A stretch of DNA of 45,600 nucleotides from Gammaproteobacteria bacterium (GTDB taxonomy: Bacteria > Pseudomonadota > Gammaproteobacteria > Steroidobacterales > Rariloculaceae): assembly GCA_963581225.1 (NCBI GenBank), contig CAUZMW010000002.1, forward strand, positions 1 to 45,600, given 5' to 3'. Positions 2,768 through 36,729 of this stretch are shown one piece after another. A program made the position numbers and the translations under genes. Under the pieces are notes generated by a model, which was not told the origin of the DNA, searched no databases, and saw only the letters and a list, made by a program, of their open reading frames with translations. Every line of letters begins with the position of its first letter. Positions within the stretch are counted from its first letter, which is position 1.

Positions 2768-2849
2768 GGGGCCCCCCCCGTCTGACTTTGATCAATACTA
2801 ACGAGGGCCGGGCGCCGAGGCCACCACCCGGCAGGGCCGAGACGACAGG

Positions 2850-2885
2850 CAAAGAAAAACCGGCTCACGCTAGATGCGAGCCGGT
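2850..2885 (-). terminator. Rho-independent terminator after the ASST-like lipoprotein gene
   Basis: On the minus strand: AACCGGCTC - 11-nt loop - GAGCCGGTT, followed by TTTCTTT. The 9-bp perfect stem lies at 2857-2865 and 2877-2885, 29 nt past the stop at 2914. Confidence 0.6.
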
Positions 2886-4590: not shown

Positions 4591-4723
4591 GATCGAACTC
4601 CTGAGAGGCAAGATTGAAGTGAAGCGGTGCTCTCTTTACTGGGTCTGACAGGCGCCCGCGACGGAGGCTGCGGCCGGTGGGCCGGGCGCCCGGCGACTAC
4701 CCTGTGGGTCGCGCGAGAGACTC

Positions 4724-4775: not shown

Positions 4776-4923
4776 CGTTTCGTCCTCGGCATGGTAGGCT
4801 TTGGCTCCGGTTCCAAGCGCTGAGTTAACTAACTTAGAAGACGCGTCGGCCGGTTTCTTGTTGCAGTCAGTCTATCATGGCGAGCCTGCGTTACGGCCGA
4901 TACGAAAGAGTAAGGGGTCATCC

Positions 4924-7492: not shown

Positions 7493-8476
7493 CTACGGAC
7501 TGAACGGTACGACCTTCACCGTGTCGCCGATCTCGAAACGCATCAGATCGTCGCCGGTCTGTAGCGGGCCCGAGTAAGTGGTCCGTGTGCGTTCCACTAC
7601 CCTTTCGATTGTGACTTCCGGCGCCCGGGGCGCGCTCAATAAGACGTAGTGCGTGTACACCGCGAGCTTGGGCGCGGCGCGCGTGAAAACGATTCCGGCT
7701 TCCTCGGGCGTCGTATGATGGTCGAGAATAAACTGCATGCGCTGATCGAAATTCAGAATCTCTTCGTTCGCGGCGGCGACTTCGTGGATCAAGACGTCGA
7801 CACCTTCGGAGATTTCGATCAGGTTCTCATCGAACTTCGTGTCTCCAGAAATCACGACCGAACGCCCGGCGTAGTCAATGCGATAATCGAATGACGGCTT
7901 GATGTACTCACCGTGATCGACGGAAAAAGCCGTGACGACAATGCCGTCTTCGTCGAAAACGACGCCGTCGTCCGAGAACTCATGCACTTCGAATTCGGCG
8001 CCGGCAGGAGGGAGTTGCTCATCGATAATGCGGGTCTGGATATTAGGGTCCATCGCCTGCCGGAGTCCGTCGAGAATGCCTTCTATTCCGGTCGGCCCCC
8101 AGACCCGCCACGGCGCGCTTCTGCGGCCGAACGGATTCGGCAGCCAACCCGTCATCCAGACGTCCGTCAAACCGTTTAGATGGTCATGGTGGAAATGCGT
8201 GATGAAAAGTTCGTCGATATCGCCCAAGGCGATGCCAAGTTGCCCGAGGCGTTGAGCAGCGCCGCGGCCGGCGTCGAACAGCATGCGATGCTCGCCGGCC
8301 TCTACGAGCGTCGCCGGACCGAACCGGTCTAGACGCGGGATCGGGTCGCCGGTGCCGAGTAGCGTCACGTTAAGCGTTTGGCTTTGAGCGGTCGGCAGCC
8401 ACAAGAAAATCGCGAGCAATGCGCTCACCGCCAATCTCGGTGCGCGGCAAGCCCGCGGGTCGTATAAGCTAATCAT
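7493..8476 (-). CDS. Exported MBL-fold metallohydrolase (RNase Z/AtsA-like size class)
   Basis: Signal-like N-terminus ...LAVSALLAIFLWLPTAQSQ. HxHxDH motif in ITHFHHDHL. 327 aa. AGGA lies before the ATG, which is 8 nt after the upstream gene's stop, so the two are probably co-transcribed. Confidence 0.8.
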   Translation of the reverse strand: MISLYDPRACRAPRLAVSALLAIFLWLPTAQSQTLNVTLLGTGDPIPRLDRFGPATLVEAGEHRMLFDAGRGAAQRLGQLGIALGDIDELFITHFHHDHLNGLTDVWMTGWLPNPFGRRSAPWRVWGPTGIEGILDGLRQAMDPNIQTRIIDEQLPPAGAEFEVHEFSDDGVVFDEDGIVVTAFSVDHGEYIKPSFDYRIDYAGRSVVISGDTKFDENLIEISEGVDVLIHEVAAANEEILNFDQRMQFILDHHTTPEEAGIVFTRAAPKLAVYTHYVLLSAPRAPEVTIERVVERTRTTYSGPLQTGDDLMRFEIGDTVKVVPFSP

Positions 8477-8484
8477 GGATATCC

Positions 8485-9513
8485 TTATCTCTCTACGTAG
8501 CGTTCTACGTTACATTCATATGGTCGGATGACGTCGCCGCGGTCCGAGGCGAAGTAGGTGTTCCAGCTCACGGGTTCGGTCAGTGTCGCCGGGTCCGTTA
8601 TCGTCAATTCGTAATCCAGGCGTCGCCCGCCGTCGGTGACCGTGAAGCGCTCGAATGTCTCGACTCCTTCACTTTGAGCAACTCCGACGCGGTTAAAGTA
8701 TGGATAGTCGATGTCCGTCGTCTCGACGATCAGTGCGCCGTCCTCCCAGCGGCCGACGGAGTAGCCTAACGGTGATGGCACGCGCTCAGCGTTATCGGGA
8801 GTGAGATGAATCGTCCGAACGTTGTCGAACTCCTCCAACCGAAGAATGATCACGTCGTCCTGCTCGCTGAACTGCATCGGATACGGGTTGCCCATCGTCG
8901 GGGGCATGCCGGGAGGTATGCATTGCAGCAACGGATCTTCCGTCTGTGGATCCCAGACAGCGAAGGCGTCACGAGCCGAGTCGGTTAACGGCAGCTCGCG
9001 GTCGAGCGGTACGCGACGACCACCGGCGATCGACCAGGTCTGAAAAAGACCGCCGGTGCCTTCCGATAGATCCGGGGCCGGCGTAGATTCGGCCGGCCGT
9101 GCGGCGCCACCATAGTAGTCGTTCGCCCAGTGTGGCTGACCGTTGCCCGGGCTGACAATGACTTCGGTGCCATTGTCGAGGAGCACGTTCGTCACGCTGA
9201 GTTGCCGCGGCCGCTTCGTCGATCGATTCACGGCGACGGTAACCCGAGCGCCCGCTTGAAAGACATCCCGCGGCACGCCCTTGCGCGCCAGCGTGTTCCA
9301 CGATGCAGCCTCCATCTCCCAGAGTTGCTCGGTACCGTTATCATCGACGGTTTTGAGCGTGAAATTCACGTGCGGGTTGCGCCAGTAAGCGGCGACGATC
9401 TCGCCGTCCATCTCAACTACGTCATCGTCGAATTCTGCTTGCGAATGATGCCCGAGCGCCGGAAACGCCAAGATCAACGTACCGATAAGTGTGGCCAGGC
9501 GAGTTCTCAGCAT
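8485..9513 (-). CDS. Exported two-domain protein: N-terminal 'HHS...WRNPH' (DUF6152-like) domain plus a conserved Cys-bracketed C-terminal domain; function unknown
   Basis: AAGGGA RBS. Signal MLRTRLATLIGTLILAFPALG followed by HHSQAEFD...YWRNPHVNF. The C-terminal region QCIPPGMP..PYPMQF..SVGRWEDG..ERFTVTDGGRRLDYELTITDPATLTEP..PYEC is colinear with residues ~200-345 of the 32782..34950 product. Confidence 0.7.
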   Translation of the reverse strand: MLRTRLATLIGTLILAFPALGHHSQAEFDDDVVEMDGEIVAAYWRNPHVNFTLKTVDDNGTEQLWEMEAASWNTLARKGVPRDVFQAGARVTVAVNRSTKRPRQLSVTNVLLDNGTEVIVSPGNGQPHWANDYYGGAARPAESTPAPDLSEGTGGLFQTWSIAGGRRVPLDRELPLTDSARDAFAVWDPQTEDPLLQCIPPGMPPTMGNPYPMQFSEQDDVIILRLEEFDNVRTIHLTPDNAERVPSPLGYSVGRWEDGALIVETTDIDYPYFNRVGVAQSEGVETFERFTVTDGGRRLDYELTITDPATLTEPVSWNTYFASDRGDVIRPYECNVERYVER

Positions 9514-9539
9514 GTGTGTCCCTTGGTGTTCCGGTGACG

Positions 9540-9600
9540 ACGAAGGGGCGTCCCCGTATCTGTAGGCGTCGCGATTCTTCTCCTTGTCTAGACTCGGGCA
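9540..9600. repeat. Degenerate or partial copy of the palindromic element seen at 32644 and 36614
   Basis: GGGGCGTCCCCGTAT (9545-9559) looks like the two element arms collapsed together. CGTCGCGATTCTTC (9567-9580) is identical to 32764-32777. TGTCTAGAC resembles the element loop ATCTAGACAG. Confidence 0.3.
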
Positions 9601-9672
9601 CGTTTAGGCACGATCATATCGGCGGCCCATACCGAATCGCGAATAGTTATAAGAATCCCGGGAGGAGACGTG

Positions 9673-11220
9673 ATGTCCAAAGAATCATTGCTGAATCGAC
9701 GATCCATCAGAATCTGCTGTATTTTACCCGCGTTGTTCATCGTCGGTTGCGATACTCAGCCAGAGACTCCGGCGGCACCCGCTTCGAGCGCCACCGCCGC
9801 TATGCCGGCTGAGGTCGAGGCTGAATACGCCAACGCCCGAAATATGCAGCTCGTCGGCTATCACGATCTTCAGGCGCGTTCCGCTTATCAACCGATAGTT
9901 CACGCCTATGGCGATCGCCGCATTCTCTTCGTCGGCCAGCACGCCGGAGAGCAGTTAAATCCTCAAACCGGCCAGGTCGAGGTGAACGGCATGTCGATCC
10001 TCGACGTGACCGATCCGAGTGCGCCCGTCATGCTGCGTCATGTGCCGCCGACGGGCGATGAAGCGAGCGGTACTCAACACGTGCAGATCTGCAACGGATC
10101 GGATCTGCCGAACGGCGACCTCAATCGAGTCTACGCCATGCGTACCAACGGACTTCTGGGCTACGAATTGTTCGACGTCACCGATCCCGCCGAGCCACAT
10201 CTTCTGCGCACTATCGCGGAGACGGCCGACTCGTCGCGCCCCGAATCCAGCCGCGGCAACCGCGAGACTCATAAGGGCCAATGGCACTGTGAGACGGGAC
10301 TTGGATTCTTTAACGGTACGCCGGCCGGCTGGCGCGTAACGCGGGTGCTGCAGACCTACGATCTCAGTAATCCGGAAGAGCCGCGGCACATCCGTGACTT
10401 CGGACTTGTCGGTTGGGAGCCGAATGCTGAGGGGCCGTTCCCCGACTATCAGATCTCAGGCCTGCATCAGCCGTATGTCACCGGTAACCGTATGTATCTG
10501 GGTTACGGCAGCGGCAACAATGGCACGCTGCAGATTCTCGATCTGGATAAGTTCCTGAGCGGCGACCCGGAGGCCGAGGATCCGTACGCGCCGACGCCGG
10601 AAAATTTGCTCTACCCACAAATCGCACGTTTAGACATGCCGGCGTACTGGGGCGTGCACACGGCGAAACCTGTGTACGGCGTGCCGATTAGCGGCTATGA
10701 GGACGACCTAGAAAATGGCACTCGCGATATTTTGCTGGTGCCGTCGGAGGCTGGAGGCGGGGCCCGCCGCTGCCAGGGCACACGGGATGTCATGTTTATC
10801 CTCGACATCACGCAAGAGGACAAGCCGTTCCCGATATCGACTTATCAGGCTGCCGAGGAACCCGGAGACTTCTGCCATCGGGGCGGACGCTTCGGCCCGC
10901 ATTCGATTAACGATGCCGATCATCCAGGTTTCGACGGCAGACTCGTCGTGTTGTCGTACTTCAATGCCGGGGTCAGAGCTGTCGATATCCGAGATCCGTT
11001 CGACCCTGTTGAGGTCGGCTACTTTGTGCCCGAGACCACCGAGAACACGACTGAGCTCTGCGTTGAGGTAGACGGAACGGAAATCTGTGACGCGGCGATT
11101 CAGACGAACAACGTCAACATCGATGACCGCGGTTATATCTATGCCGTCGATCGTTCATCCACGGGGCTGCACATCCTTGAACTAACGGGTGACGCAAGAG
11201 ATATTGTCGGGCTTGAGTGA
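9673..11220 (+). CDS. LVIVD-repeat beta-propeller lipoprotein
   Basis: GGAGGAG precedes GTG 9670 / ATG 9673. Lipobox LFIVGC. Recurrent LVIVD-type repeats: MSILDVTDPSAP, YELFDVTDPAEP, LQTYDLSNPEEP, VRAVDIRDPFDP, GLHILELTG. Confidence 0.6.
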   Translation: MSKESLLNRRSIRICCILPALFIVGCDTQPETPAAPASSATAAMPAEVEAEYANARNMQLVGYHDLQARSAYQPIVHAYGDRRILFVGQHAGEQLNPQTGQVEVNGMSILDVTDPSAPVMLRHVPPTGDEASGTQHVQICNGSDLPNGDLNRVYAMRTNGLLGYELFDVTDPAEPHLLRTIAETADSSRPESSRGNRETHKGQWHCETGLGFFNGTPAGWRVTRVLQTYDLSNPEEPRHIRDFGLVGWEPNAEGPFPDYQISGLHQPYVTGNRMYLGYGSGNNGTLQILDLDKFLSGDPEAEDPYAPTPENLLYPQIARLDMPAYWGVHTAKPVYGVPISGYEDDLENGTRDILLVPSEAGGGARRCQGTRDVMFILDITQEDKPFPISTYQAAEEPGDFCHRGGRFGPHSINDADHPGFDGRLVVLSYFNAGVRAVDIRDPFDPVEVGYFVPETTENTTELCVEVDGTEICDAAIQTNNVNIDDRGYIYAVDRSSTGLHILELTGDARDIVGLE

Positions 11221-19665: not shown

Positions 19666-20655
19666 CTATAAACCGGCGCGGTTGTTGTTTTTGACGGCCT
19701 TGTTGATGGCGTTCTTGGGCCACTTACCTTGTAGTACGAGTTTAACCTCGTTCGGTGCGCCGGCCTGCAGGCCGGCCATGGCCTTCTCGCTGTACCACGC
19801 GACATGCGGATTGATGATGACGTTATCGCGGTTTCGCAGCGAGTGGTTTTCGGTCAACGGTTCCGGATCAGTCGTGTCTAGCGCGCAGCCGGCAATCGTA
19901 TTGTTGTCGAGCGCGTCGACCAACGCGTCGGTGTCAATGATCGGTCCGCGTGAACAATTTACAATGACGGCCGTATCTTTCATTTTGGTGAATTGGTCGG
20001 CGCCGATCATGCCGCGTGTCTGTGGCAGCAGCGGGGCGTGAATGCAGACGAAATCGGATTCTGTCAGTAGTTGATCGAATTCGACTTTCTCTCCCGGCGC
20101 GTCGAACTGACCTGGTTCAACGAACGGGTCGAAGTAGAGTACGCGCATGTCGAGGCCCGCAGCCGCTTTCGCAACGCGCCGGGCGATGTTACCGAAGCCG
20201 ATGAGCCCGCAGGTACTTCCTGATATACGGAACATGGGTTTCCCAGGTGGGACTTCCCATCGGCCTGCACGCACGAGGCGATCATAGAATGCGATTTTTC
20301 GCGATGATGCTAGTAGCATCGCGATTGTGTGCTCCGCGACTTCCTCGACGCAGTAGGTCGGGTTGTTCGTGACGATGATGCCCGCCTCGGTCGCGGCATC
20401 AAGATCGATCGTGTCCACACCGATTCCGTAGCGCGCGATGATCTTACAGTTCGGCATCCGCGCCATGATTTCGCTGGTGATCGGTCCGGCGTAGGTGTTC
20501 AGCAACGCGTCGCAGTCCGCGGCCTCCGGGAAAAACCCGTCCGAGTCAGACACTTGTATCGGGACGATCTCGGCGAGCTCGCCGAGAATCTCGTGCTCGA
20601 CATCCAGCTTTTCCCATACATAATCGGTAAGAACGACTTTGGCTTTATCAGTCAT
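19666..20655 (-). CDS. D-isomer-specific 2-hydroxyacid dehydrogenase (CtBP/PGDH-like)
   Basis: ORF 19666..20706. ATG 20655 gives MTDKAKVVLTDY. NAD motif GLIGFGNIARRV, and the catalytic-region pattern R..(E)..H is typical of the family. Confidence 0.85.
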   Translation of the reverse strand: MTDKAKVVLTDYVWEKLDVEHEILGELAEIVPIQVSDSDGFFPEAADCDALLNTYAGPITSEIMARMPNCKIIARYGIGVDTIDLDAATEAGIIVTNNPTYCVEEVAEHTIAMLLASSRKIAFYDRLVRAGRWEVPPGKPMFRISGSTCGLIGFGNIARRVAKAAAGLDMRVLYFDPFVEPGQFDAPGEKVEFDQLLTESDFVCIHAPLLPQTRGMIGADQFTKMKDTAVIVNCSRGPIIDTDALVDALDNNTIAGCALDTTDPEPLTENHSLRNRDNVIINPHVAWYSEKAMAGLQAGAPNEVKLVLQGKWPKNAINKAVKNNNRAGL

Positions 20656-20671
20656 GCAGTAGAGAACTCCG

Positions 20672-21946
20672 TTATTCCATCCAGCGGACGATGCCGGCGA
20701 CGCCATCGACGGCGACTGTGGATCCGTCCGGGATCAAGGTTGTAGCGTCGAGCACGCCGAGGACCATCGGGATGCCGCGTTCGCGTGCCAATGAGGCGAG
20801 ATGCGATGTGCTGCCGCCGAGTTCTGCGACGACGGCGGAGACCTGCGATAGCATCTGGCTCAGCGCCGGTCCCGCGACTTTCGTGACGAGCACGTCTCCC
20901 GGTCCGATCCGGGAAATCTCGCACTCGCAGTTCACGATGCAGGCGCGCCCGGAACCCCAACCGATGCCGGCCGGGTGTCCTCTAAGGCGCGGCTTCTGCG
21001 CCCAGACTTCATCGACGTCAGCGGTCTCTTCTTCGACGTGCAGCGGCCGTGCTTGCAGCATCTTGAAGCCTGTATCGTCGAGCGACCATTCGATCTCCGC
21101 CGGTCCATCGATTACGTCCTCGGCCTTCAGCAGTAGACGACCGAGTTCGATGACTTGTGCCGCGTCGAGGCATGGATCTTCGGCGCGCGCACGCTCGACC
21201 GACTGCGTGCCGTGTACGCAGCCAACGCTATGCGTCTTGCGTCCGCCGACCATCTCGATGATTTCGCAATCGCGGCTGAGTACGTAACGATCCGGGACGA
21301 CCTCGCCCTGGGCGATTGCCGAGCCGAGACCCAATGTCGCACTGATCAACATGTCGCCCTCGGCCGTCCGGCTCAGCCCGCCGCCGGAAGCGCGCGCATG
21401 AACGAGTGGCTGAATAATCAGTGCCATCGCGGTATCGGCCGGGTCGGCGCCGTGCGTCGCCATATAACGCAGCGCGCGAGTCGACCATAGCGCACACCAG
21501 CAAGACCGGACCGCCGTCAGAAACTCGGTCTCGTTTTCCAGCCCCAGAAAGCTCTCGAATTGGCCCGCGAAACTCGAGTCGAAGCGATCTTCGACGAGCG
21601 CCGATGAGCGTACGACACCCAGCGTGCCGTTTGTCGCCATGAGTTCACGCCACGTTTCGAGCAGCGGCAAGAGCAAGGACTCCACGATCGGTTGGTCGAG
21701 CAAGCCGAGCTTCATGTCGAGCGCGTTGCGGCGAGCCTCGAAGCCCTCGGTTGAGAAAACCGCGCGCGCGGTCTCCTCCAGGCCGAGCGCCCTGAGCTGG
21801 CTCCGGTACGCTTCCGCGTCGAGGCAATAGCCGCCCGGAGTAGGCAGGCCAGCCTGCCCAAGAGCCGCTTGATTGGCGGCCTTGGGCCCGAAGCGATCCA
21901 CATCGGTCGCTTCGGGGGCGCTTAGCGGGATGACGAAGTTGTGCAT
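20672..21946 (-). CDS. Compact PEP-utilising enzyme: PPDK-N-type ATP-grasp plus phosphohistidine swivel domain, with no PEP/pyruvate TIM-barrel
   Basis: N-terminus FGPKAANQAALGQAGLPTPGGYCL...VRSSALVEDRFDSSFAGQFESFL (PPDK_N-like). C-terminus GGSTSHLASLARERGIPMVLGV (mobile His domain). Only 424 aa. Confidence 0.8.
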   Translation of the reverse strand: MHNFVIPLSAPEATDVDRFGPKAANQAALGQAGLPTPGGYCLDAEAYRSQLRALGLEETARAVFSTEGFEARRNALDMKLGLLDQPIVESLLLPLLETWRELMATNGTLGVVRSSALVEDRFDSSFAGQFESFLGLENETEFLTAVRSCWCALWSTRALRYMATHGADPADTAMALIIQPLVHARASGGGLSRTAEGDMLISATLGLGSAIAQGEVVPDRYVLSRDCEIIEMVGGRKTHSVGCVHGTQSVERARAEDPCLDAAQVIELGRLLLKAEDVIDGPAEIEWSLDDTGFKMLQARPLHVEEETADVDEVWAQKPRLRGHPAGIGWGSGRACIVNCECEISRIGPGDVLVTKVAGPALSQMLSQVSAVVAELGGSTSHLASLARERGIPMVLGVLDATTLIPDGSTVAVDGVAGIVRWME

Positions 21947-21964
21947 CTCCCGTGATCTCCTTTG

Positions 21965-23248
21965 CTAGACCAGTTTGCGGTCTCGCGAATCAGCCGCGGC
22001 GTAACCCGGAATCGGATCGACAACCGTGATCTGCTCCACGGGGAAGTTCGAGACGATCTCGGTATGGTCGGAATGCACAATCAGCATTTCTTCGATGCGT
22101 ACGCCCCACTTGAACGGAATACCGTGCTGAGTCTCGAGCGCGAAGGTCATGCCCTCCTGAATGTCGATCGGATGATCCAGCGACCAGATTCGCGAGATAA
22201 CGGGAGGGTCGTACTGCGCGAGGCCGAGCCCGTGTCCCCACAGGTTGGCCGCGGCCTGATCTTCCTCTTCGTAGCCCCAGGCTTCCTTCGCCGACGGCCA
22301 TACGGAAGCGATATCGCGGGTTGTCGCGCCAGGCTTAACTTCGTTGATCGCTGCGTAGAGCCAGTCCTTCGCAGTCGCATAGATTTCCTTCTGCTTCTCC
22401 GACGGTTCTGCACCAACGCAATAGGTTCGGTAGTAGCAAGATTTGTAGCCGTTCCAAGTGAGAGCGGCGAGATCCATGAAGACGATATCGCCGGGTTTGA
22501 TAATACGGTCTGAGAAATTGCGCCAGTTAGGCCAGGTGTTCGGCCCCGACGAGACGATGACGTCCTCGACGTCTTCGATACCTGGAATGTCGTAGAGGAA
22601 CTTCATGATATGGGCCGTGACTTGATTCTCCGTCAAGCCGGGGCGCAGGAACTTCATCGTCTCCCAGTGAGCGGCGTCACCGATGGCGCCGACGATACGG
22701 AAACATTCCTGTTCGTCCACATTCTTGACGGCACGCGCTTCCATCATCGGAGACATACCGTCGGTCCAATCGATGCCTTCGTCTTTGAACGCTTGGATGA
22801 TATTGATATCGACGAAGTCGATGCCGACTTTCTCGCCTGCGACATTGCTCTTTTTCATTTCCTGCTTCACGGCCTTCGCAAACTTGCCGACTTGCTGGGC
22901 CGAAGCGGGTCCGGCTGCACCTTTGATCCAGGAGTAGGAGTAACGAACGTTTTCTTTCGGGATCCAGGGGCAGTGGCGCTGGATCTGTGCGCCGATGTCG
23001 CCTTGCTCGAAGATGACCGGTGGATCGTCACCGCAGAGCATCGCATAACGTAATCCGGGTTTGAGTCGGCACCAGCCGGGTGTCAGCGTGGCCGTAACAT
23101 AGCGAATGTTCTCGTCGTACATCAGGACCAACGCGCTGAGTCCGGCAGCCTTCATACGCTTCCGGGCCCTTTCAAGGCGGTACGTGCGCAGCCGCTCCCA
23201 GTTAATGCGTTGCTGCCAGTCCAATCCCACGGTACCAAAATTCGCCAT
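21965..23248 (-). CDS. M24-family (creatinase/prolidase-fold) hydrolase
   Basis: Creatinase_N-like N-terminal half plus pita-bread C-terminal half: GDIVFMDLAA..GYKSCYYRTY, WGHGLGL, FALETQ, VRIEEM. GAGGGAGA RBS. Confidence 0.8.
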   Translation of the reverse strand: MANFGTVGLDWQQRINWERLRTYRLERARKRMKAAGLSALVLMYDENIRYVTATLTPGWCRLKPGLRYAMLCGDDPPVIFEQGDIGAQIQRHCPWIPKENVRYSYSWIKGAAGPASAQQVGKFAKAVKQEMKKSNVAGEKVGIDFVDINIIQAFKDEGIDWTDGMSPMMEARAVKNVDEQECFRIVGAIGDAAHWETMKFLRPGLTENQVTAHIMKFLYDIPGIEDVEDVIVSSGPNTWPNWRNFSDRIIKPGDIVFMDLAALTWNGYKSCYYRTYCVGAEPSEKQKEIYATAKDWLYAAINEVKPGATTRDIASVWPSAKEAWGYEEEDQAAANLWGHGLGLAQYDPPVISRIWSLDHPIDIQEGMTFALETQHGIPFKWGVRIEEMLIVHSDHTEIVSNFPVEQITVVDPIPGYAAADSRDRKLV

Positions 23249-25344: not shown

Positions 25345-26842
25345 GTGGAAGTCTGGTCGCAGGTTCTAGAACAGCTGCTCTTTATTGCGCAGACCCCGAT
25401 GCTCTGGGTCGCCTGTCTAAGCGGTGTGACACTCGGGATACTCTGGGGGGCGATGCCGGGCCTGTCTACGACAATGGCGATGACGCTGCTCATCGGCCTG
25501 ACCGTGGGTATGTCCCAATCCGTCGCCATCATATTTATGATCGGGGTCTACACCGGTAGTGTGTTCGGCGGCGCGATCTCAGCCGTACTCATCAATATCC
25601 CCGGCACGCCCGACGCCGTGCCGACGATGATCGAGGGCTACGCGCTCGCGAAGCGAGGGCGGACTGGCGCTCGGCACGGCGATCTCAGCTTCGTTTATCG
25701 GCAACTGGGTTGGCATCCTTCTACTCATCGCACTGATACCGGCCGTACTGTTCTTCGCGTTGCAGTTCAGATCCTGGGAGATGTTTCTACTCTCGCTGTG
25801 GGGGATCGCCATCTGTGGTTCGATGTCTTCTATGGAGATGCCGTTAAAGGGATGGATCTCAGGATGGCTCGGTCTCATGGTGTCGTTCGTCGGTCTGGAT
25901 GCCATTCACGGCGTTTCTCGGTTCAGTTTCGGCTCGTACAACCTGGATGACGGAGTAAGTTTTATTCCGGTTCTGATCGGCTTGTTCGGCTTGACCGAGA
26001 TACTTCGAGTACTGCTGCAGAAATCTCCGCCGTCGATCCCGTCGGATGTCGGTCGGGTGCTTCCGTCGCTACGATCTCTGGTCAAGTACATCCGGCCGAG
26101 TTTTAGGTCCGGGATTATCGGTACGGTGATTGGCGCCATCCCGGGTGCCGGAGCAAACGTTGCGTCTTTCTTTTCTTACGATGTCGGCCGGCGGCGCGCC
26201 AGTGCGGAGGAGAAGAAGAAGTGGGGCAAGGGTAGCTACGAGGCGATCGTTTGCGCGGAAGTTGCCAACAATGCCAACGTTGGAGGGTCGATGTTACCGA
26301 CATTGGCATTGGGTATACCGGGCAACGCGGCGGCGGCAGCCATACTGGCCGCGTTAGAGCTGAAGAACGTTGTCGTGGGGCCGTTGATCCAGACAGAGAA
26401 CCCGGGTCTGATTTTCTATATCTATATCGGGCTGATCGTCGCCAATTTCTTCATGTACGCCATGGCCATCGCGTTGATTAAACCGTGTGTAAAATTGTTC
26501 AGCCTCCCCAAGACGCTCCTGATGCCGCTGATTCTGCCGATCTGTGTGATCGGCGCGTTCGCCGTCAATCTGAATTACTTCGACGTCTACGTGATGCTGA
26601 TTTCCGGGTTGATCGGCTACGTACTTCACCGGTTCGGGTTTCCTCTGGCACCGATCGTGCTGGCCGTCATTCTTGGGCCGCTGGCGGACGAGAACCTTCG
26701 GCGTGCACTGCTGGTATTCGAGGATGTCGCTGTGTTGACGATCCTGTGGGAGCGCAAGCTCGGTACGGTACTACTGCTGGTCGTGCTGTACACTTTTTAT
26801 GATGGAATCTTTAAGCGTGGAAAATCGAGAGCTGAAAACTAA
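25345..26842 (+). pseudogene. tctA: tctA interrupted by a +1 frameshift near 25657-25667
   Basis: Frame of 25345 reads a normal TctA N-terminus up to ...MIEGYALAKRG, then turns to junk. The frame of 25760 is open back to the TGA at 25628-25630 and reads GGLALGTGISASFIGNWVGILLLIALIPAVLFFALQF..., colinear with KALEMSLFASAISDFLSDIF... of the intact TctA at 17055. The switch falls at the GGGCGG run. Confidence 0.8.
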
Positions 26843-30760: not shown

Positions 30761-31729
30761 CTACTTGATCGCCATCGGATTCAACGGCGAGCCGACGCCG
30801 CCCGTCACCGGCAGCGGTGGCGCGCAGAAAAAGAACTCGTAGACGCCGTCCTCCGCGCAGTCCTCGGCCAGGTGATCGACGACGAAGATCTCGCCCATCG
30901 TAATGCCGATCATCGGGATTACGACCCAATGCCACGGCTGTTGTGCATCGGTGGTTTCGTTGGGGCGCACTTCGCAGCCCCAGGTGTCGCAACAGATCGC
31001 CGCGATTTCTTTCTCGTAGATCCACTCGGCTGTTTCGAAGGCTAACCCGGGCGCATCGCCGCCGGCGTAGCTGCCCCAGTCTCCGGCGCGCTGACGTTGC
31101 CCGAGCATTCCGGTGCGGACGATGACGAAGTCGCCGCGACGCACTTCGACTCCCTGTGCTTCGGCGGTCTCGTCGAGGTCCGCTCTCGTGATCGCCATTC
31201 CCTCGTCGAGCGACTCGACACCGGCGTGCTTCGCGACGTCCAGAAGGATGCCTCGTCCTGCCATCCTGTCTTTAACTTTTTCGATACCGTTTTTTTGTGC
31301 GCCGTTGGAATCGACGAGGCGGGCGTCATAGCCGTTCCACATCTTGTCGTCGAAGAAAATATGCCCGAGCGCGTCCCACTGCGTACCGCACTGTAACGGC
31401 AATGAGACCATATCGTCGGCATAACGAAATTTTCCTGCATCTTGGTTGCCGGCGACCGCATCGGTACCAGTCGCGAGCATCGTATGGATCGGATTGAAGC
31501 GGTTGCCCCAGAGCGCTTTCTGCGGGCCGTCCTTGTCGAAGTTCAGGCCCAGAGAGAAGGTCTTTCCCTTTCGAACGAGCGCAGCGGCTGCGATGATGTC
31601 TTCGGGCGTAATGAAATTCAGCGTGCCGGCCTCGTCATCGGGGCCCCACCGACCCCAGTTCTTACACTTCTCCGCCGTTTCGCGGAGAATGTCCATGTTG
31701 AGTTTGCCCTCGCTATAGTGTCGCGGCAT
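30761..31729 (-). CDS. Cytoplasmic cyclase-family protein (kynurenine formamidase-like fold)
   Basis: ORF 30761..32014. ATG 31729 follows AAGGAAGGTGG. N-terminus ...WGRWGPDDEAGTLNFITPEDI. Core motif QCGTQWDALGH. The longer ORF would overlap the divergent SDR gene. Confidence 0.75.
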   Translation of the reverse strand: MPRHYSEGKLNMDILRETAEKCKNWGRWGPDDEAGTLNFITPEDIIAAAALVRKGKTFSLGLNFDKDGPQKALWGNRFNPIHTMLATGTDAVAGNQDAGKFRYADDMVSLPLQCGTQWDALGHIFFDDKMWNGYDARLVDSNGAQKNGIEKVKDRMAGRGILLDVAKHAGVESLDEGMAITRADLDETAEAQGVEVRRGDFVIVRTGMLGQRQRAGDWGSYAGGDAPGLAFETAEWIYEKEIAAICCDTWGCEVRPNETTDAQQPWHWVVIPMIGITMGEIFVVDHLAEDCAEDGVYEFFFCAPPLPVTGGVGSPLNPMAIK

Positions 31730-31846: not shown

Positions 31847-32626
31847 ATGGGTGCCTCCAACGAGGAACACTTCAAGACGCCGACCATGCGCCTGGACGGC
31901 CTTGTGGCCGTTGTCACCGGCGCCGGACGCGGTCTCGGTCGCGCGTGTGCGCTTGCGCTTGCAGAGGCGGGCGCGAGCCCCGTGCTGGTCAGCCGTACCG
32001 AGAGCGAACTTCAAGCCGTCGCCGCGATTATCGCCGCGGACGGAGGCACGGCCTCGACGTTAGTCTGCGATGTCACCGATGTCCGCCAGGTTGAGAGCGC
32101 CATTGGCGGGCTCGAGCGGATCGATATTCTTGTCAATGCCGCCGGCTTCAATATTCCTGAGCCGCTCGACGACGTGACTGAGGAACATTTCGATAAGGTC
32201 ATAACGGTTAACGTCAAGGGCACGTTCATGGTGTCTCAGGCTGCTGTTCGCCGCATGCGGGCTGGTGGCAGTGGCGGGGCGATCATTAACATCTCCTCGC
32301 AGATGGGCCATGTCGGCGCGCCGAATCGAACGGTGTACTGTGCGTCGAAACACGCCGTGGAGGGCATGACGAAAGCCATGGCCGTCGAACTTGCGCCAGA
32401 GAAGATTCGCGTCAACTCGATCGGGCCGACGTTTATCCTCACGCCGCTGACCGAGCCCTTCTTCGAAGATCAGGCGTTCAGAGAGGATACGTTGCGGCGA
32501 ATACCGCGCGGCGAGGTCGGTCAGCCGACGGACGTGATGGGCGCCGTGGTTTTTCTTGCGTCACCGGCGGCGGCCCTGATCACGGGCGCCGCGTTGGTGA
32601 TCGATGGCGGGTGGACCGCCTGGTAA
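31847..32626 (+). CDS. Short-chain dehydrogenase/reductase (SDR)
   Basis: ORF 31442..32626. ATG 31847 lies 8 nt after GGAGG. TGAGRGLG, NAAG and YCASKHAV motifs. Confidence 0.9.
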   Translation: MGASNEEHFKTPTMRLDGLVAVVTGAGRGLGRACALALAEAGASPVLVSRTESELQAVAAIIAADGGTASTLVCDVTDVRQVESAIGGLERIDILVNAAGFNIPEPLDDVTEEHFDKVITVNVKGTFMVSQAAVRRMRAGGSGGAIINISSQMGHVGAPNRTVYCASKHAVEGMTKAMAVELAPEKIRVNSIGPTFILTPLTEPFFEDQAFREDTLRRIPRGEVGQPTDVMGAVVFLASPAAALITGAALVIDGGWTAW

Positions 32627-32643
32627 AGCTCGGATCGCGTCCT

Positions 32644-32762
32644 GGCGGCCGCTCCCACAAATACGGGGACGGTCTACCAAAATATCTATCTAGACAGTTC
32701 AACAGAGTTGGTGAGTTAGGTAGACCGTCCCCGTATTTGTCGTATTTTTGGGAGCGACGGCC
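32644..32762. repeat. Palindromic intergenic element, copy A (REP/MITE-like)
   Basis: Perfect 21-bp arms: CAAATACGGGGACGGTCTACC (32658-32678) and GGTAGACCGTCCCCGTATTTG (32719-32739). The 40-nt loop contains ATCTAGACAGTTC. Outer arms GGCGGCCGCTCCCA (32644-32657) and TGGGAGCGACGGCC (32749-32762) pair at 12/14. Confidence 0.85.
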
Positions 32763-32781
32763 TCGTCGCGATTCTTCGTTT

Positions 32782-34950
32782 CTACGGCGAGTAGTGATCC
32801 ATGGTCGCGCAATCGGTGCAGCGGACGTCTTCGATCGGCCGCCCGTCTACCATGTCGGCGATCCAGTCCCGATACCGCCGTCCGTCGACCTGGTAGCTGT
32901 AAAAGCGGTCGTAGATATAGGGTAGACCCCGATTGCGGTTACCGGTCTGCGGAATGGAGTCGAAATAGCCGAGGCTGATGACGTGTTTGTTGCCGCCGGC
33001 CACGTAAGTACGGTAGTTGTCGACCTGGCTTTTAACATGCTCGTGGCCCGCCTCGACAACATCGAGGATCGGACCGTCCACGCCCAAGTACTCGAGCATC
33101 TCCGAGAACACCATGTCGTGAGCCGTGATCATCTGCGTGAACACGATCTCCGGGTGACGCCGGGCGGCGGCGATCGTGATGTCTTCGAAGCTGAAGTTGT
33201 CCGGGTCGAGTCCCGCGAAGCCTGTGTGTTCGTTCAATAAGTCCACCGTGCCCCAGGCTTCCCGGATCGGTTGTAGGAGTTCGCCGATGAAGAGCGCGCC
33301 GTTACCGTCACCGAGGTGGCGTACGGCGGCATCGGGGTAGTGATCCGCGACGACCGACGCATAGAAGGGCGTACCGTAGCTCCCCGATGTGTGGCCACTG
33401 ATGACGACGGTTTCGGGCGATTCAAAGTTATCGAAAACCCAGTCGAGGACGGTCATTGCATTGCGATAACCGTTGAAATGCAGCGTGTCGCTGATCCGGG
33501 TCTCACCGTTCTCGAGCGGACCGTCGTTCGGACGCACGGCGTCACCGATATGCATGTCGCCTGTGCAGTAACCGACGAGCACCTTGGTGAAATCCTGAAA
33601 CGGGTTCTCGGAATTATCTTCCGCCATAATTCCGGTCGATCCGGCTGGATTGTCTTCGGCTCGTACGGTCTTTGGATTGTCGTCCATGCGGCCGACGGGT
33701 TCGTCGGTACAGGTCAACCCGGACCAACACGCGCCGCCACCGGGGAAACTGATCAGCACCTTGCTCGGGTCGGCCGGACGGGCGAAGAACCCGTATTCCG
33801 TCCCATAGAGACACATCGTATCTTCGCCGGGGCGAATCGTGTTCCAGTCGTCCGAGAGGTCGGCGAAGGCGGGTCGTCCCACGTGATTCGTAGCCGCGGC
33901 TGTCAGCGTGCCGGCCGTCTGCTCGCATTCGTAAGGCGCGACTGTCTCGCCGGGAACCCAGAACCAGTACTTGCTGAAGGTGGTTGGTTCCGTAAACACG
34001 GCGGGATTCGTCATCGTCATCGTGTAGTCGAGGCGCTTGCCGTCTGCGGTCGGCGTAAATCGCTCAACGATTTCGGCACTGGCGGAGTTCGGGACGCCGG
34101 TCATATCGACATACGGCCAGCTGCTGCCCGTTGTTGTCACCACCAGCGTGTCGCCTTCCCAGCGGCCGACGGAGTGGCCCATCAGAGTCGGTTCGCGACC
34201 TGCCGCTGTTGCACCCGGCGTCATGTCGATTTCCCGTACTGCGTCGCCTTCCTCCATTCGCAGCAGGATCGTGTCCCCGTCTTGAACGAGTTCCATCGGA
34301 TAAGGCTGTTCCATGATCGTCGGCATGCCTTTGTGCACGCAGCCTGCCGCCAGGATCGGGTTGCTGTACATGTCATAGCCGGCACGGGTGGTGGTGGCCG
34401 TAGCGGTTAGCGGAAAGTCGTAGCGCTCGAACAGCATCACTTCCGCGGGCCCGAGGCCGAGGCTCGTGCTCCAGACACGAAAGATAGTCGCCTCCTCGCC
34501 GGACGATCCTTCCAGATCGTCCTCTGTCACCAGCCACGCCGAAGCGTCGCCGGCGACATTCTCGCTCCACCGAGGCGGGAGTCCCGGCATGAAGACGATT
34601 TCCTGGCCGTCCTGCATGAGCATGTTGGTTACGAACATCTCATTGCCGCCGCGTTGCGCCGGCCAGCCGGCCACGCTCACGTGATCACCAGGTGATACGG
34701 CGTCCCGCGTCAGGTTCATTCGCCTGAGGATGCTGACCGAGTTCGCTTCGATGTGCCATACGGCCCCGTCGCCGCTACTGGATTCGATCGTAAAAATGAC
34801 ATGAGGGTTTCGCCATTGAACCTCGATAACCTCGCCTTCCGCTTCGACAGTCGTCTCCGGATCGAAGAACAGGAAAGGTGAGTGATGCCCGGCCGCCGTC
34901 AGGCTATAGAGCATCGATGCCGTGATAACAGCAGGTTTCAGCAATGACAC
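32782..34950 (-). CDS. Exported three-part fusion: HHS/WRNPH (DUF6152-like) domain, conserved Cys-bracketed domain, and pectin-acetylesterase-like alpha/beta-hydrolase domain
   Basis: GTG 34950 lies 9 nt after GGGAG. Signal ...SLTAAG, then HHSPFLFFD..VQWRNPHVIF. Residues ~200-345 are paralogous to the 8485..9513 product. Residues ~355-722 carry PAE/Notum-like landmarks: FPGGGACWSGLTC, VGYCTGDMHIGD, LHFNGYRN, VISGHTSGSYG. Confidence 0.7.
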   Translation of the reverse strand: MSLLKPAVITASMLYSLTAAGHHSPFLFFDPETTVEAEGEVIEVQWRNPHVIFTIESSSGDGAVWHIEANSVSILRRMNLTRDAVSPGDHVSVAGWPAQRGGNEMFVTNMLMQDGQEIVFMPGLPPRWSENVAGDASAWLVTEDDLEGSSGEEATIFRVWSTSLGLGPAEVMLFERYDFPLTATATTTRAGYDMYSNPILAAGCVHKGMPTIMEQPYPMELVQDGDTILLRMEEGDAVREIDMTPGATAAGREPTLMGHSVGRWEGDTLVVTTTGSSWPYVDMTGVPNSASAEIVERFTPTADGKRLDYTMTMTNPAVFTEPTTFSKYWFWVPGETVAPYECEQTAGTLTAAATNHVGRPAFADLSDDWNTIRPGEDTMCLYGTEYGFFARPADPSKVLISFPGGGACWSGLTCTDEPVGRMDDNPKTVRAEDNPAGSTGIMAEDNSENPFQDFTKVLVGYCTGDMHIGDAVRPNDGPLENGETRISDTLHFNGYRNAMTVLDWVFDNFESPETVVISGHTSGSYGTPFYASVVADHYPDAAVRHLGDGNGALFIGELLQPIREAWGTVDLLNEHTGFAGLDPDNFSFEDITIAAARRHPEIVFTQMITAHDMVFSEMLEYLGVDGPILDVVEAGHEHVKSQVDNYRTYVAGGNKHVISLGYFDSIPQTGNRNRGLPYIYDRFYSYQVDGRRYRDWIADMVDGRPIEDVRCTDCATMDHYSP

Positions 34951-34971: not shown

Positions 34972-36447
34972 CTATTGTGCCGCCATCTTTAGGCCGGTGA
35001 GCGAGCGCTCACGACCGACCGAACCCTTTAGAGCGAGCTCATAGTTCTGCAGCGCCAGCTCGTTCTTGCCCATCGACAGATAGGTATCTGCTAGCAGTTC
35101 CGCCGTCGGCTGCACAGGCTGAGCGGGGCCGTACTCCGGCGGCACGCTGGCCTCGAGTTGTGCGGCTTCCTCTATCAGAGTGAGCGCGCGGTCGGAATTT
35201 CCTGCCGCCAACTCGATCTGACCTTCGAGTGCCAGGTGCAACAGCCGCGGTACCATCGCGCGACGACTAGCCGTCTGAATGGGTTCGGCGCCGCCGATCG
35301 CCGCCAGCGCTGAGTTGGCGCTATCGGAATCGCCCGCTTTGAGTGCCAGTACTCCCTGAATGTACTGATCCGTCGCGATCGCGTATGGACTCAAGCCGTC
35401 GTAATCGACTTGCACGCTGGCTAATGGGCTGTCCCAGTTACCTGTATCGACGAGATAAGATGCTCGACCTGCGATGAAGTTCTGCCGGTGCGATGCGGCC
35501 GGGTGACGGGTCATCTGGTCCTGAATCAGCGCGACATGCTCGGCTGCTTCCGCGTCCCGGTTCATCTGATTGAGAGCGTAGATCACCCAGGTCAACGCGT
35601 GATAAGCCTGATTCCCATATGGGTCGTTCTTGCTGGGTCGGCGCCCAATGTCCTCTTCGAACGAACGCGCGTTGCGTTCGTATCCGAGCTCCCACATGCC
35701 GAGTGCGAAATAGATATGCGAGCCCATGTGCAGCGCGTGCACGGCCGACGGCGCGACTTCGGCGTACACCTTCGCGGCGCGTAAACCCAACGGCGCGTGG
35801 ATCGGGTCGTCGTAGCTGTGAATGGCGTAATGGAGGGCGCCGGGATGTGTCGGATTGATCGCTAGGACGTCCTCCGCGATCGCGCCGGCGCGCATATAGC
35901 GCGCATAGTCTCGACCGCCATGACTGGTCGTAATCAGGGATAGCGCGTAGAACGCCGCGGCGTCGAGATCGTCCGGATAGGATTCGCGGATCTCCCCGAG
36001 TGCTGCCGAATACAGAAGCTCTCGCTCCTCCTGGCTCCCTTCGCCGAACAGAAGCTCAACCGAGTGTAGGTAGGCTTTCTCGCGATCGGTTGCGAATTTC
36101 GTCGCTCGCTCCTCCGGTGTGTCACCGAGTCTTGCAAGCGCGGCTCTGGAGGCATCGAGACTGTGTTGGCTCCACAGCGAATGTTCATGGGTCAGCGCCT
36201 CGCCCCAGTACGCCATCGCGAAGTCCGGGTCGAGATCCTGTGCTTGAAGAAAGCTGACGCGAGCGTCGTCGTACTCGAAATTATGTAACTGGAGCAATCC
36301 CAGAATGAATACGTCGTACGCTTCCGGGGTTCCGGATGCGGCGAAATCGGTGCTGCCGTAAATCTCCGCATCGCGGCCATCGGCGGCCGAAGCGGTACCG
36401 GTCAGCGATACGCTCAGTATCAGACTCAAGAATAATGCGTTCTTCAT
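34972..36447 (-). CDS. Exported helical-repeat (TPR-like) protein with a conserved His cluster; function unknown
   Basis: Signal MKNALFLSLILSVSLTGTASA. TPR-like helices throughout (e.g. C-terminal AELLADTYLSMGKNELALQNYELALK). His-rich block HPGALHYAIHSYDDPIHA...AVHALHMGSHIYF. Lies 21 nt upstream of the fusion gene. Confidence 0.55.
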   Translation of the reverse strand: MKNALFLSLILSVSLTGTASAADGRDAEIYGSTDFAASGTPEAYDVFILGLLQLHNFEYDDARVSFLQAQDLDPDFAMAYWGEALTHEHSLWSQHSLDASRAALARLGDTPEERATKFATDREKAYLHSVELLFGEGSQEERELLYSAALGEIRESYPDDLDAAAFYALSLITTSHGGRDYARYMRAGAIAEDVLAINPTHPGALHYAIHSYDDPIHAPLGLRAAKVYAEVAPSAVHALHMGSHIYFALGMWELGYERNARSFEEDIGRRPSKNDPYGNQAYHALTWVIYALNQMNRDAEAAEHVALIQDQMTRHPAASHRQNFIAGRASYLVDTGNWDSPLASVQVDYDGLSPYAIATDQYIQGVLALKAGDSDSANSALAAIGGAEPIQTASRRAMVPRLLHLALEGQIELAAGNSDRALTLIEEAAQLEASVPPEYGPAQPVQPTAELLADTYLSMGKNELALQNYELALKGSVGRERSLTGLKMAAQ

Positions 36448-36613: not shown

Positions 36614-36729
36614 GATACGGGGACGGAATACGGGGGCGGTCTACCTAACTATCTAGACAGTTCCACCGTGAGTTAGGTAGACCGTCCCCGTATTCGAGAA
36701 TATCTGCCACCAATGTTGGAGCGGCCGCC
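36614..36729. repeat. Palindromic intergenic element, copy B (same orientation as copy A)
   Basis: 25-bp arms: GAATACGGGGGCGGTCTACCTAACT (36626-36650) and AGTTAGGTAGACCGTCCCCGTATTC (36671-36695), with one mismatch. The loop ATCTAGACAGTTCCACCGTG is shared with copy A. An extra half-arm ATACGGGGACGG lies at 36614-36625. The flank TTGGAGCGGCCGCC (36716-36729) matches the copy A outer arm. Confidence 0.85.

Follow-up and report, generated by a model that had tools for sequence, protein, structure and literature searches.

The DNA stretch analyzed here (the window) comprises 45,600 nt, positions 1 to 45,600 of contig CAUZMW010000002.1 (assembly GCA_963581225.1), from an uncultured gammaproteobacterium of the family Rariloculaceae. 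On its reverse strand, an open reading frame (ORF) of 722 codons plus stop (32782..34950; stop codon 32782..32784) encodes a genuine three-domain exported protein, in which a complete DUF6152-long module, consisting of an OB-fold and a calycin-like beta-barrel, is joined to an alpha/beta-hydrolase domain of the pectin acetylesterase (PAE)/Notum superfamily. The hydrolase domain belongs to a divergent clade with threonine at the nucleophile elbow. The architecture is a rare, young, lineage-restricted fusion of known but uncharacterized parts and not a new kind of system. The exported 722-residue fusion that had been claimed in a sequence-only reading of the window was found as described.

The reading frame of the fusion is intact over all 722 codons. 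It starts with GTG, which has a GGGAG Shine-Dalgarno sequence 9 nt on its 5' side and lies 21 nt past the stop codon of the gene directly upstream, encoding a 491-aa exported TPR protein (34972..36447, reverse strand). A scan for promoters and terminators gave no signal over the shuffled background. Two genes could have been joined falsely through chimeric assembly of the metagenome or through a frameshift in sequencing; the window is a contig of a metagenome-assembled genome (MAG), its TctA gene is split into two overlapping ORFs elsewhere on the contig, and populations with DUF-only and PAE-only alleles exist. However, the whole fusion gene aligned without gaps to two further assemblies, L093 (NCBI GCA_046581815.1) and L092 (a JGI contig), with nucleotide identities of 99.1 and 98.8%, respectively (loci and homologous proteins are given here by our working numbers). 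In addition, the single-module alleles differ from the fusion by 0.2–0.4 synonymous substitutions per site (dS), and no long k-mer at the junction is common to the fusion and these alleles. The same gap-free junction in three independent assemblies, none of which carries a disabling change in the fused ORF, excludes a chimera or frameshift for practical purposes; both were rejected, and an artefact of this kind is very improbable. The exact window protein sits in a cluster of 57 members at 90% identity, which includes MFP6827683.1 of NCBI (a 644-aa partial sequence named “DUF6152 family protein”) and a 710-aa JGI protein.

The N-terminal half of the protein is a full member of the DUF6152-long family with a complete module. 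BLASTP aligned residues 1–342 end-to-end with the product of a paralogous stand-alone DUF6152-long gene of the window (8485..9513, reverse strand, 342 aa), with 129 of 349 positions identical (37%; E=3e-63), which bears out the claimed colinearity of residues 1–345 with that product. The Pfam DUF6152 model (PF19649) matched residues 16–102 in both proteins; in the fusion, this search, which had been suggested, gave a score of 58.5 bits against a curated cut-off of 27. All of the sequence blocks claimed to be shared by the two proteins were found in the N-terminal half (HHS, WRNPH, C..GMP..M..PYPM, SVGRWEG, ERFT..DG.RLDY..T.T.P...TEP, and PYEC), and most of them were at least 90% conserved in 115 representatives of the DUF6152-long family. 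In the same set, H22, H23, W46, N48, P49, H50, W160, C204, R239, G258, S260, G262, W264, E296, and C342 were 96–100% conserved, and W65 was conserved in 95%. Every residue conserved at 90% or more was kept in the fusion except D315, which is replaced by N. Thus, the hallmarks of the family, namely the signal peptide, HH, W-x-NPH, G.S.G.W, E-R-F, and the Cys pair, are colinear over its full length. The stand-alone members (for example, the 8485..9513 paralogue and P0228) have the signal peptide, HH, W-x-NPH, OB-fold, barrel, and Cys204/Cys342 pair in common with the fusion at 37–58% identity; however, they end a few residues past the last Cys and usually occur alone or in tandem, with no hydrolase attached.

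A Sec signal peptide was recognized by eye at residues 1–21 (MSLLKPAVITASMLYSLTAAG; 34888..34950), and signal peptidase I (SPase I) is predicted to cut directly ahead of His22. The residue in front of the HH pair (position -1) is A, G, or S in 111 of 113 representatives, and the pair is reached after a median of 23 residues; therefore, the mature protein is predicted to begin with His-His (His22-His23, 34882..34887). Both of these histidines, as well as H50 of the motif W46-x-N48-P49-H50 (34801..34815), were 99% conserved in the 115 representatives. The two motifs form a candidate metal site, and the invariant N-terminal His-His on an OB-fold hints at metal binding, as judged from residue conservation. 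Among known systems, the His-brace proteins (LPMO, CopC) have a fold different from the OB-fold of the fusion, in which HH stands at the predicted SPase I site and H50 is nearly invariant. A literature search found nothing on a histidine brace combined with an OB-fold.

The N-terminal half was represented by an AlphaFold2 model of residues 1–350 built on 50 homologues (pLDDT 84, pTM 0.83). In the model, residues 35–112 form an OB-fold, a barrel of five strands whose third and fourth strands are linked by a helix; the DUF6152 domain was placed at residues 22–120 (34591..34887; PF19649 E=7e-16). It is followed by an inter-domain segment (residues 121–178; 34417..34590), which was modeled partly with low confidence and contains a conserved FRVW motif (157–160). 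The middle domain (residues 179–345; 33916..34416) was modeled with pLDDT above 90 over most of its length as a calycin/FABP-like barrel, in which eight antiparallel strands at residues 219–331 are preceded by short helices. A Foldseek search of the PDB with the N-terminal half retrieved the OB domains of LysRS, Stn1 (Stn1-Ten1), and RPA2, as well as CRABP2 (cellular retinoic-acid-binding protein II), which was the best match of a non-OB fold and aligned with the barrel (E=8e-4, target-normalized TM about 0.5). Calycins (lipocalins, FABP/CRABP) resemble the middle domain in the size of the antiparallel barrel and in the short helices before it; they differ in sequence (14–16% identity, which amounts to no sequence similarity), the TM value is only about 0.5, and the model has 8 strands, whereas FABP/CRABP barrels have 10. 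Neither single-sequence nor profile searches of PDB sequences with the N-terminal module gave a match even at E≤10, and NCBIfam held no model for the fusion or for the 8485..9513 paralogue.

The barrel domain also occurs tandemly duplicated in acidobacterial proteins of about 520 aa that have no Pfam annotation. In L015 (14229..15396, reverse strand), L177 (9313..10534, reverse strand), and protein P0110, the barrel and the HH/OB (DUF6152) domain were observed as separate adjoining ORFs, with the barrel preceding the OB domain. This order is the reverse of that in DUF6152-long proteins, and the two domains seem to be a recombining pair in themselves.

Both fold and profile assign the C-terminal domain to the PAE/Notum superfamily. 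It occupies residues 359–722 (32785..33876) and is connected to the N-terminal module by a flexible Thr/Ala-rich linker (residues 346–358, AGTLTAAATNHVG; 33877..33915), which represents the fusion junction and has pLDDT below 50 at residues 346–350. The Pfam PAE model (PF03283) matched residues 377–548 with 50.1 bits against a cut-off of 26.6, covering only profile positions 21–184 of 355. An AlphaFold2 model of residues 351–722 built on 69 homologues (pLDDT 90, pTM 0.91) gave a Notum-like alpha/beta-hydrolase, and the best 50 Foldseek matches in the PDB were all Notum structures, starting from E=3e-12 with TM values of 0.52–0.67. The profile of the 69 C-half homologues matched Notum chains at E=3.7e-17; with the single sequence of the domain, the PDB search reached Notum at E=0.065 only, so that the profile was needed. 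The landmarks on which the superfamily assignment had originally been proposed, GGGACW (404–409), YCTGD (461–465), and FNGYRN, were all found and are conserved; both the profile search and the structure prediction upheld that proposal.

The fusion has exactly eight cysteines, all at conserved positions. Cys204 (34339..34341; 100% conserved) and Cys342 (33925..33927; 99%) bracket the barrel, as had been noted from the sequence, and Cys380, 408, 414, 462, 711, and 714 belong to the PAE domain. This set fits an extracytoplasmic protein with four predicted disulfides. Notum (palmitoleoyl-protein carboxylesterase; PDB 4UYU, 7BO1) and the plant pectin acetylesterases (CE13, PF03283) are likewise extracytoplasmic and disulfide-rich and share with the C-terminal domain the alpha/beta-hydrolase fold, the motifs GGG-x-C-W and Y-C-[ST]-x-D, and the acid Asp and the His at equivalent positions. 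In contrast to them, the fusion is bacterial, carries an N-terminal DUF6152-long module, matches the Pfam profile over its first half only, and has an insertion of about 30 residues past the catalytic His.

The active site of the domain departs from that of known relatives. In the alignment of 69 sequences, the broad family has G-x-S-A-G at the nucleophile elbow, in columns where the fusion and its 14 closest relatives show G-x-T-S-G-S; the glycines G519 and G523 never vary. The profile alignment set G-S-S232-A-G of Notum on G519-H-T521-S-G523 of the fusion (33382..33396), and in the model of the C-terminal half a strand ends at residue 520 and a helix begins at 521. The alignment, the Notum profile, and the strand-to-helix turn together show that Thr521 (codon ACA, 33388..33390) holds the nucleophile position. 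The string SGHTSGSYG and its non-canonical nature had been recognized correctly from the sequence, but the register S-G-S-Y-G proposed for the elbow was rejected on alignment and model grounds. The Ser-His-Asp triad, whose presence was to be inspected, is kept in part at the aligned positions: Asp612 and His656 (32983..32985; 69 of the 69 aligned sequences) are invariant, but the Ser is absent and Thr521 stands in its place.

The canonical PAE motifs are GCSxG, N..D..Q, and HCQ, with D340 and Q343 in Notum (PMC5465549). In the fusion, the Ser of G-x-S-x-G is not kept (S232 in GSSAG of Notum, the Ser of GCSxG in plants), nor is the acid motif N-x-x-x-D-x-x-Q. In the corresponding segment I608-T-A-H-D612-M-V-F615 (33106..33129), Asp612 stays, while I608 replaces N and F615 replaces Q, both replacements being specific to the clade of the fusion. 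Of 143 sequences, 47 carried the combination T521/S522/[I,V,A]608/D612/[F,L]615/H656; these comprise all relatives down to 42% identity, and nearly all others had S/A/[N,D,T]/D/Q/H or, in broader terms, S/[A,G]/x/D/Q/H. These data delineate a Thr-type clade that is coherent and in which three active-site residues have changed together (S to T, N to I/V, and Q to F/L). Since the C-terminal domain lacks the Ser nucleophile and the N..D..Q features, it is filed as a divergent Thr-type clade and not as a pectin acetylesterase. With Thr521 at the elbow and with N and Q replaced, ordinary Ser-esterase chemistry should not be assumed. The literature search found nothing on a Thr-nucleophile variant (GxTxG).

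All 47 clade members have the three replacements in the catalytic site together. Set against the motifs described as canonical for PAEs, this coordinated change is what would be expected if the domain no longer hydrolyzed esters and had taken on a binding or scaffold role. However, Asp612 and His656 remain invariant, Thr521 and Ser522 do not vary across the clade down to 42% identity, GGGACW and YCTGD are retained, and the ratio of nonsynonymous to synonymous divergence (dN/dS) of the module is 0.029. The overall pattern suits altered chemistry better than decay, and we regard a pseudo-enzyme as rather improbable. For an enzyme that is catalytically active with Thr, the chances appear even.

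The fusion of these two modules is rare. A word-indexed search found both Pfam domains together only in the fusion's own cluster at 90% identity or more. In an exhaustive HMMER scan, 1.84 billion cluster representatives yielded 10,527 hits, and none of the top 150 covers both halves; a protein carrying both domains would rank at the top. The survey of domain architectures that had been suggested thus points to a rare architecture. The closest relatives of the C-terminal half (65–89% identical) are stand-alone proteins of about 405–435 aa with lipoprotein signal peptides (...LGC, ...SGC, ...TAC). Among them, P0002 and P0005 (annotated as “pectin acetylesterase-family hydrolase,” Candidatus Rariloculaceae) are alignable over residues 355–722 approximately, carry the same G-x-T-S-G elbow, and lie in the same synteny as the fusion (enoyl-CoA hydratase, CoA-transferase, TPR, PAE, convergent SDR, cyclase); they differ by a lipobox signal peptide and a linker of about 35 residues where the fusion has the DUF6152-long module. 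Other PAE fusions exist, with metallo-beta-lactamase (MBL; P0258, P0305) and DUF6197 (P0237, P0242, P0031, P0032) as partners, indicating that bacterial PAE domains are modular and recombine. Unlike the fusion described here, they have other partner domains and, where examined, a Ser-type elbow.

Comparison of the fusion locus with those of related lineages suggested how the fusion had originated. The locus has a common order of genes for enoyl-CoA hydratase, CoA-transferase III, the exported TPR protein of about 491 aa, a variable slot, a convergent SDR, and a cyclase. The slot holds only a lipoprotein PAE in L001–L003 (Ca. Rariloculaceae); a 149-aa DUF6152 ORF and, after a gap of 39 nt on the same strand, a lipoprotein PAE gene (76% identical) in L178; only a 347-aa DUF6152-long gene, ending in ...PYECEQTAD plus stop 3 nt from the SDR stop codon, in L007–L010; only a 388-aa PAE gene with the signal peptide and junction of the fusion (MKSAVITASMLCCLTAAAATNHVGRP...) in L011; and the fusion in the window, L092, and L093. 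Stand-alone DUF alleles end in ...EQTAD, and the conserved part of the stand-alone PAE homologues begins with H.GRP.FADL. In the fusion, ...SLTAAG is followed by HHS, and there is no Cys before residue 204 and thus no lipobox; homologues P0002, P0005, P0008, P0009, and P0023, as well as the PAE of L178, carry LGC, SGC, AGC, or TAC lipoboxes.

The 149-aa ORF of L178 (4512..4961) is an ortholog of the N-terminal module of the fusion, with 62% identity over residues 16–97. The equivalent of these residues is joined straight to that of approximately residues 278–344, and approximately residues 98–277 are missing, with the deletion joint located between the GWP and SWP motifs. Thus, this ORF is what an internal in-frame deletion has left of the orthologous DUF6152-long gene. 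The DUF module of the fusion is flanked by direct repeats encoding LTAA, one at the end of the signal peptide (CTGACGGCGGCCG; 34890..34902, reverse strand) and its partner at the fusion junction (CTGACAGCCG; 33897..33906, reverse strand), and the PAE-only gene of L011 runs through one merged copy of the repeat. The remnant in L178 is a second case of a microhomology-type in-frame deletion at the fusion locus.

The most parsimonious scenario would be that of an ancestor in which a DUF6152-long gene was followed on the same strand by a lipoprotein-type PAE gene, as in L178. One deletion would have taken out the stop codon of the first gene, the spacer, and the lipobox signal peptide and linker of the PAE, producing the fusion and changing the hydrolase from lipid-anchored to tethered to the DUF module. 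Later losses in related lineages would account for the loss of the PAE (L009 type), the loss of the DUF module via the LTAA repeat (L011 type), and the decay of the DUF gene (L178). Similarity of the signal peptides does not decide between L011 as the state before insertion and as a deletion derivative; the latter is favored, since the ancestral arrangement of adjacent genes, with the PAE as a lipoprotein, is seen in L178. We hold the proposed anatomy and origin of the fusion with high confidence.

Among the fusion alleles, dS was 0.01–0.03 and dN/dS 0.18–0.46, the latter estimated from few substitutions. The PAE module of the fusion compared with L011 gave dS of 0.20 and the dN/dS mentioned above, and the DUF module compared with L009 gave dS of 0.38 and dN/dS of 0.075. 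These codon comparisons indicate that both modules are under strong purifying selection, fused or alone.

The TPR gene lies directly upstream of the Thr-type PAE gene, or of the DUF6152 gene preceding it, in L001–L006, L012, L013, L176, L178, L009, and L093, and this placement holds in all close relatives (at least 73% identity) with enough upstream sequence except L014. Apart from faint TPR matches, the 491-aa protein could be assigned to no family and has no relative in the PDB. Of the hydrolase's partners, it may be the more constant one.

Several repeat elements were observed around the slot. The spacer between the stop codons of the fusion and the SDR gene contains an insert of 155 nt (32626..32781) that is absent from L007–L011. 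It holds a perfect 22-nt inverted repeat (GGTAGACCGTCCCCGTATTTGT) at 32657–32678 and 32719–32740 and its hairpin fold has an energy of -77.8 kcal/mol (z=-9). Upstream of the TPR gene (36676..36697) lies a third, diverged copy of the repeat; thus, the unit of TPR gene and fusion is flanked by a REP/MITE-like element. The spacer of L092 contains a different insert of 195 nt (2683..2877), which shares GGGAGCGACGGCCTCGTCGCGAT in the opposite orientation.

The association of the two modules outside the fusion was assessed by counting neighbors within a distance of 5 kb, using hidden Markov models for the OB and barrel domains. A DUF6152 gene lay within 5 kb in 7 of 10 Thr-type PAE lineages (at least 66% identity) compared with 3 of 75 Ser-type loci (Fisher p=2.6e-6), and all three Ser-type loci with a nearby DUF6152 gene appear Rariloculus-related. 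In L004/L005, L012, and L014, the Thr-type PAE gene is followed on its own strand by a DUF6152-long gene at a distance of 68–120 nt. Of the three DUF6152 genes in L176, the short one precedes the TPR gene and the two long ones follow the PAE gene; in L013, L015, and L177 DUF6152 genes were found at most 5 kb from the Thr-type PAE gene. By contrast, none of 80 metagenomic DUF6152-long loci (L094–L173) has a PAE neighbor. Clustering of the genes neighboring these 80 DUF6152-long genes revealed no recurrent family besides further DUF6152-long copies: tandem arrays of 2–6 copies within about 13 kb were present in 29 of the 68 loci whose copy was recovered by ORF clustering, and the 45.6-kb window itself contains two copies. 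Hence, the functional link between DUF6152 and the hydrolase is supported but is specific to one PAE sub-clade and does not extend to the whole “HHS” family. The claimed connection of that family with a putative ester hydrolase therefore finds support for its members near Thr-type PAE genes and none for the family at large.

It is conceivable, if doubtful, that a small deletion merely joined neighbors with independent jobs, the tether having no mechanistic meaning and the modules no cooperation. Consistent with such a neutral event, the fusion is confined to alleles with dS of at most 0.03 and to a single cluster of at least 90% identity; in sister lineages, one or the other module occupies the slot by itself and is under purifying selection; in L178, the DUF gene decays while the PAE gene is kept; microhomology-mediated in-frame deletions have occurred repeatedly at the locus; and PAE neighbors are absent from the 80 DUF6152-long loci. 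The strong enrichment of DUF6152 genes near Thr-type PAE genes in varied arrangements (upstream, downstream, short, and long) speaks against this explanation, as does the intact state of the fused ORF in three assemblies. The balance tips slightly toward the two modules acting on one pathway.

The genes around the fusion in the window encode TRAP and TTT transporters, CoA-transferase III, enoyl-CoA hydratase, SDR, two “cyclases,” and two arylsulfotransferases; against NCBIfam, the neighboring genes gave sub-threshold matches only. LigAB/LigC-like genes adjoin the Thr-type PAE genes in L175 and L177, and L174 contains Amidohydro_2 and a trio of M24, PPDK_N, and 2-hydroxyacid dehydrogenase genes, which is also found in the window (19666..23248, reverse strand). 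This context suggests an organic or aromatic acid product that is then imported and activated.

A pectin or other polysaccharide acetylesterase with a carbohydrate-binding-like module of OB-fold and barrel might be expected from the Pfam family name PAE, and OB-folds can bind oligosaccharides, while esterases are often fused to binding modules. However, the domain has neither the catalytic Ser nor the N/Q motif of plant PAEs, Notum, a lipid deacylase, gave the best structural match, and no CAZyme or polysaccharide-utilization genes lie nearby in the window. The pectin-type reading did not withstand these results, given the Notum match and a context of organic-acid and aromatic catabolism, and polysaccharide deacetylation is most unlikely.

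The proposed function may be outlined as follows. The protein would act in the periplasm or outside the cell, where the Thr521-His656-Asp612 triad would act on a hydrophobic or aromatic substrate by cleaving off or transferring an acyl group bound in ester linkage, in a pocket that I608 and F615 would make more hydrophobic. The calycin-like barrel may bind or present the hydrophobic or aromatic part of the substrate or product, and the N-terminal His-His/His50 cluster alongside it possibly holds a metal. The tether would take the place of the lipid anchor that positions the stand-alone enzymes, and the released acid could be taken up and processed by the neighboring TRAP/TTT transporters, CoA-transferase, and enoyl-CoA hydratase. 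Taken together, the anatomy, the Thr-type site, the origin, and this function constitute the best overall explanation, which we consider reasonably probable.

Several points weigh against it. The structural matches of the N-terminal module are weak (E of approximately 5e-4 to 1e-3, target-normalized TM about 0.5), and the literature search found nothing on DUF6152/PF19649 or on the “pectin acetylesterase-family hydrolase.” As far as we know, Thr serves alpha/beta-hydrolases poorly as a nucleophile or is unknown in that role, and no such enzyme is known to us that has it as the nucleophile of a Thr-His-Asp triad; the loss of N and Q from the acid motif could mean that catalysis has been lost. 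The fusion is dispensable, since sister lineages are DUF-only (L007–L010), PAE-only (L011, L001), or have a decayed DUF gene (L178). Finally, besides the DUF6152-long loci devoid of PAE neighbors, two more distant Thr-type loci, L174 and L179, have no DUF6152 gene nearby.

Further observations concern other genes of the window. The trio shared with L174 consists of an M24/creatinase-like peptidase, a PPDK_N protein with the PEP-utilizer mobile domain and without the C-terminal catalytic domain, and a D-2-hydroxyacid dehydrogenase; it lies about 10 kb from the fusion, and in L174 (3059..6631) it stands directly beside the distant Thr-type PAE gene. Two divergent arylsulfotransferase (ASST) genes (2914..4611, reverse strand, and 4801..6516, forward strand) are located beside a “cyclase” (PF04199) gene, and the second cyclase gene occupies approximately 30761..31729; the ASST and cyclase genes may be a sign of phenolic or aryl conjugate metabolism. 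The split TctA gene is represented by overlapping forward-strand ORFs 25345..25950 and 25760..26842, matching profile positions 3–88 and 121–423, and is either a frameshifted pseudogene or a MAG assembly error. A distance of 9 nt separates the stand-alone DUF6152-long paralogue from the gene of an exported MBL-fold hydrolase (7493..8476), whose best NCBIfam matches, GntH and RNase Z, are under the cut-offs; the paralogue is divergent from a family-less ORF of 516 aa (the three genes spanning 7493..11220). The same trio of DUF6152-long, ORF516 homologue, and MBL was also found in L163 (5944..10485). A general DUF6152/MBL/PAE triangle was reduced to a lead, with an MBL gene present in 1 of the 80 DUF6152-long loci.

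A broader joint reading may be put forward speculatively. DUF6152-long proteins would represent a large unrecognized family of periplasmic metalloproteins, with a His-brace-like site, made up of the mature N-terminal His-His and His50, on an OB-fold beside a calycin barrel holding a hydrophobic or aromatic substrate; the Thr-type Notum-fold proteins would be their dedicated Thr-His-Asp partners and, together with the TPR protein, would form a new extracytoplasmic pathway. We consider this reading a long shot. If true, the pathway would de-esterify and modify aromatic or lipid esters before their uptake, and the fusion would be its Rosetta stone.

In conclusion, the locus illustrates clearly how, in nature, short-repeat in-frame deletions in close lineages can lead to the fusion and fission of genes and to the loss of domains. 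The fusion is of value less in itself than for exposing a candidate partnership of DUF6152 with Thr-type Notum-fold proteins, the Thr at the elbow, and the N-terminal His-His on an OB-fold. The 47-member Thr clade represents one of two things, a catalytic variant that is new for the alpha/beta-hydrolase fold or a pseudo-enzyme that has been conserved. The DUF6152 family counts thousands of members, none of them with a solved relative, and has no literature; the fusion and the adjacency of the genes provide its first contextual handle.

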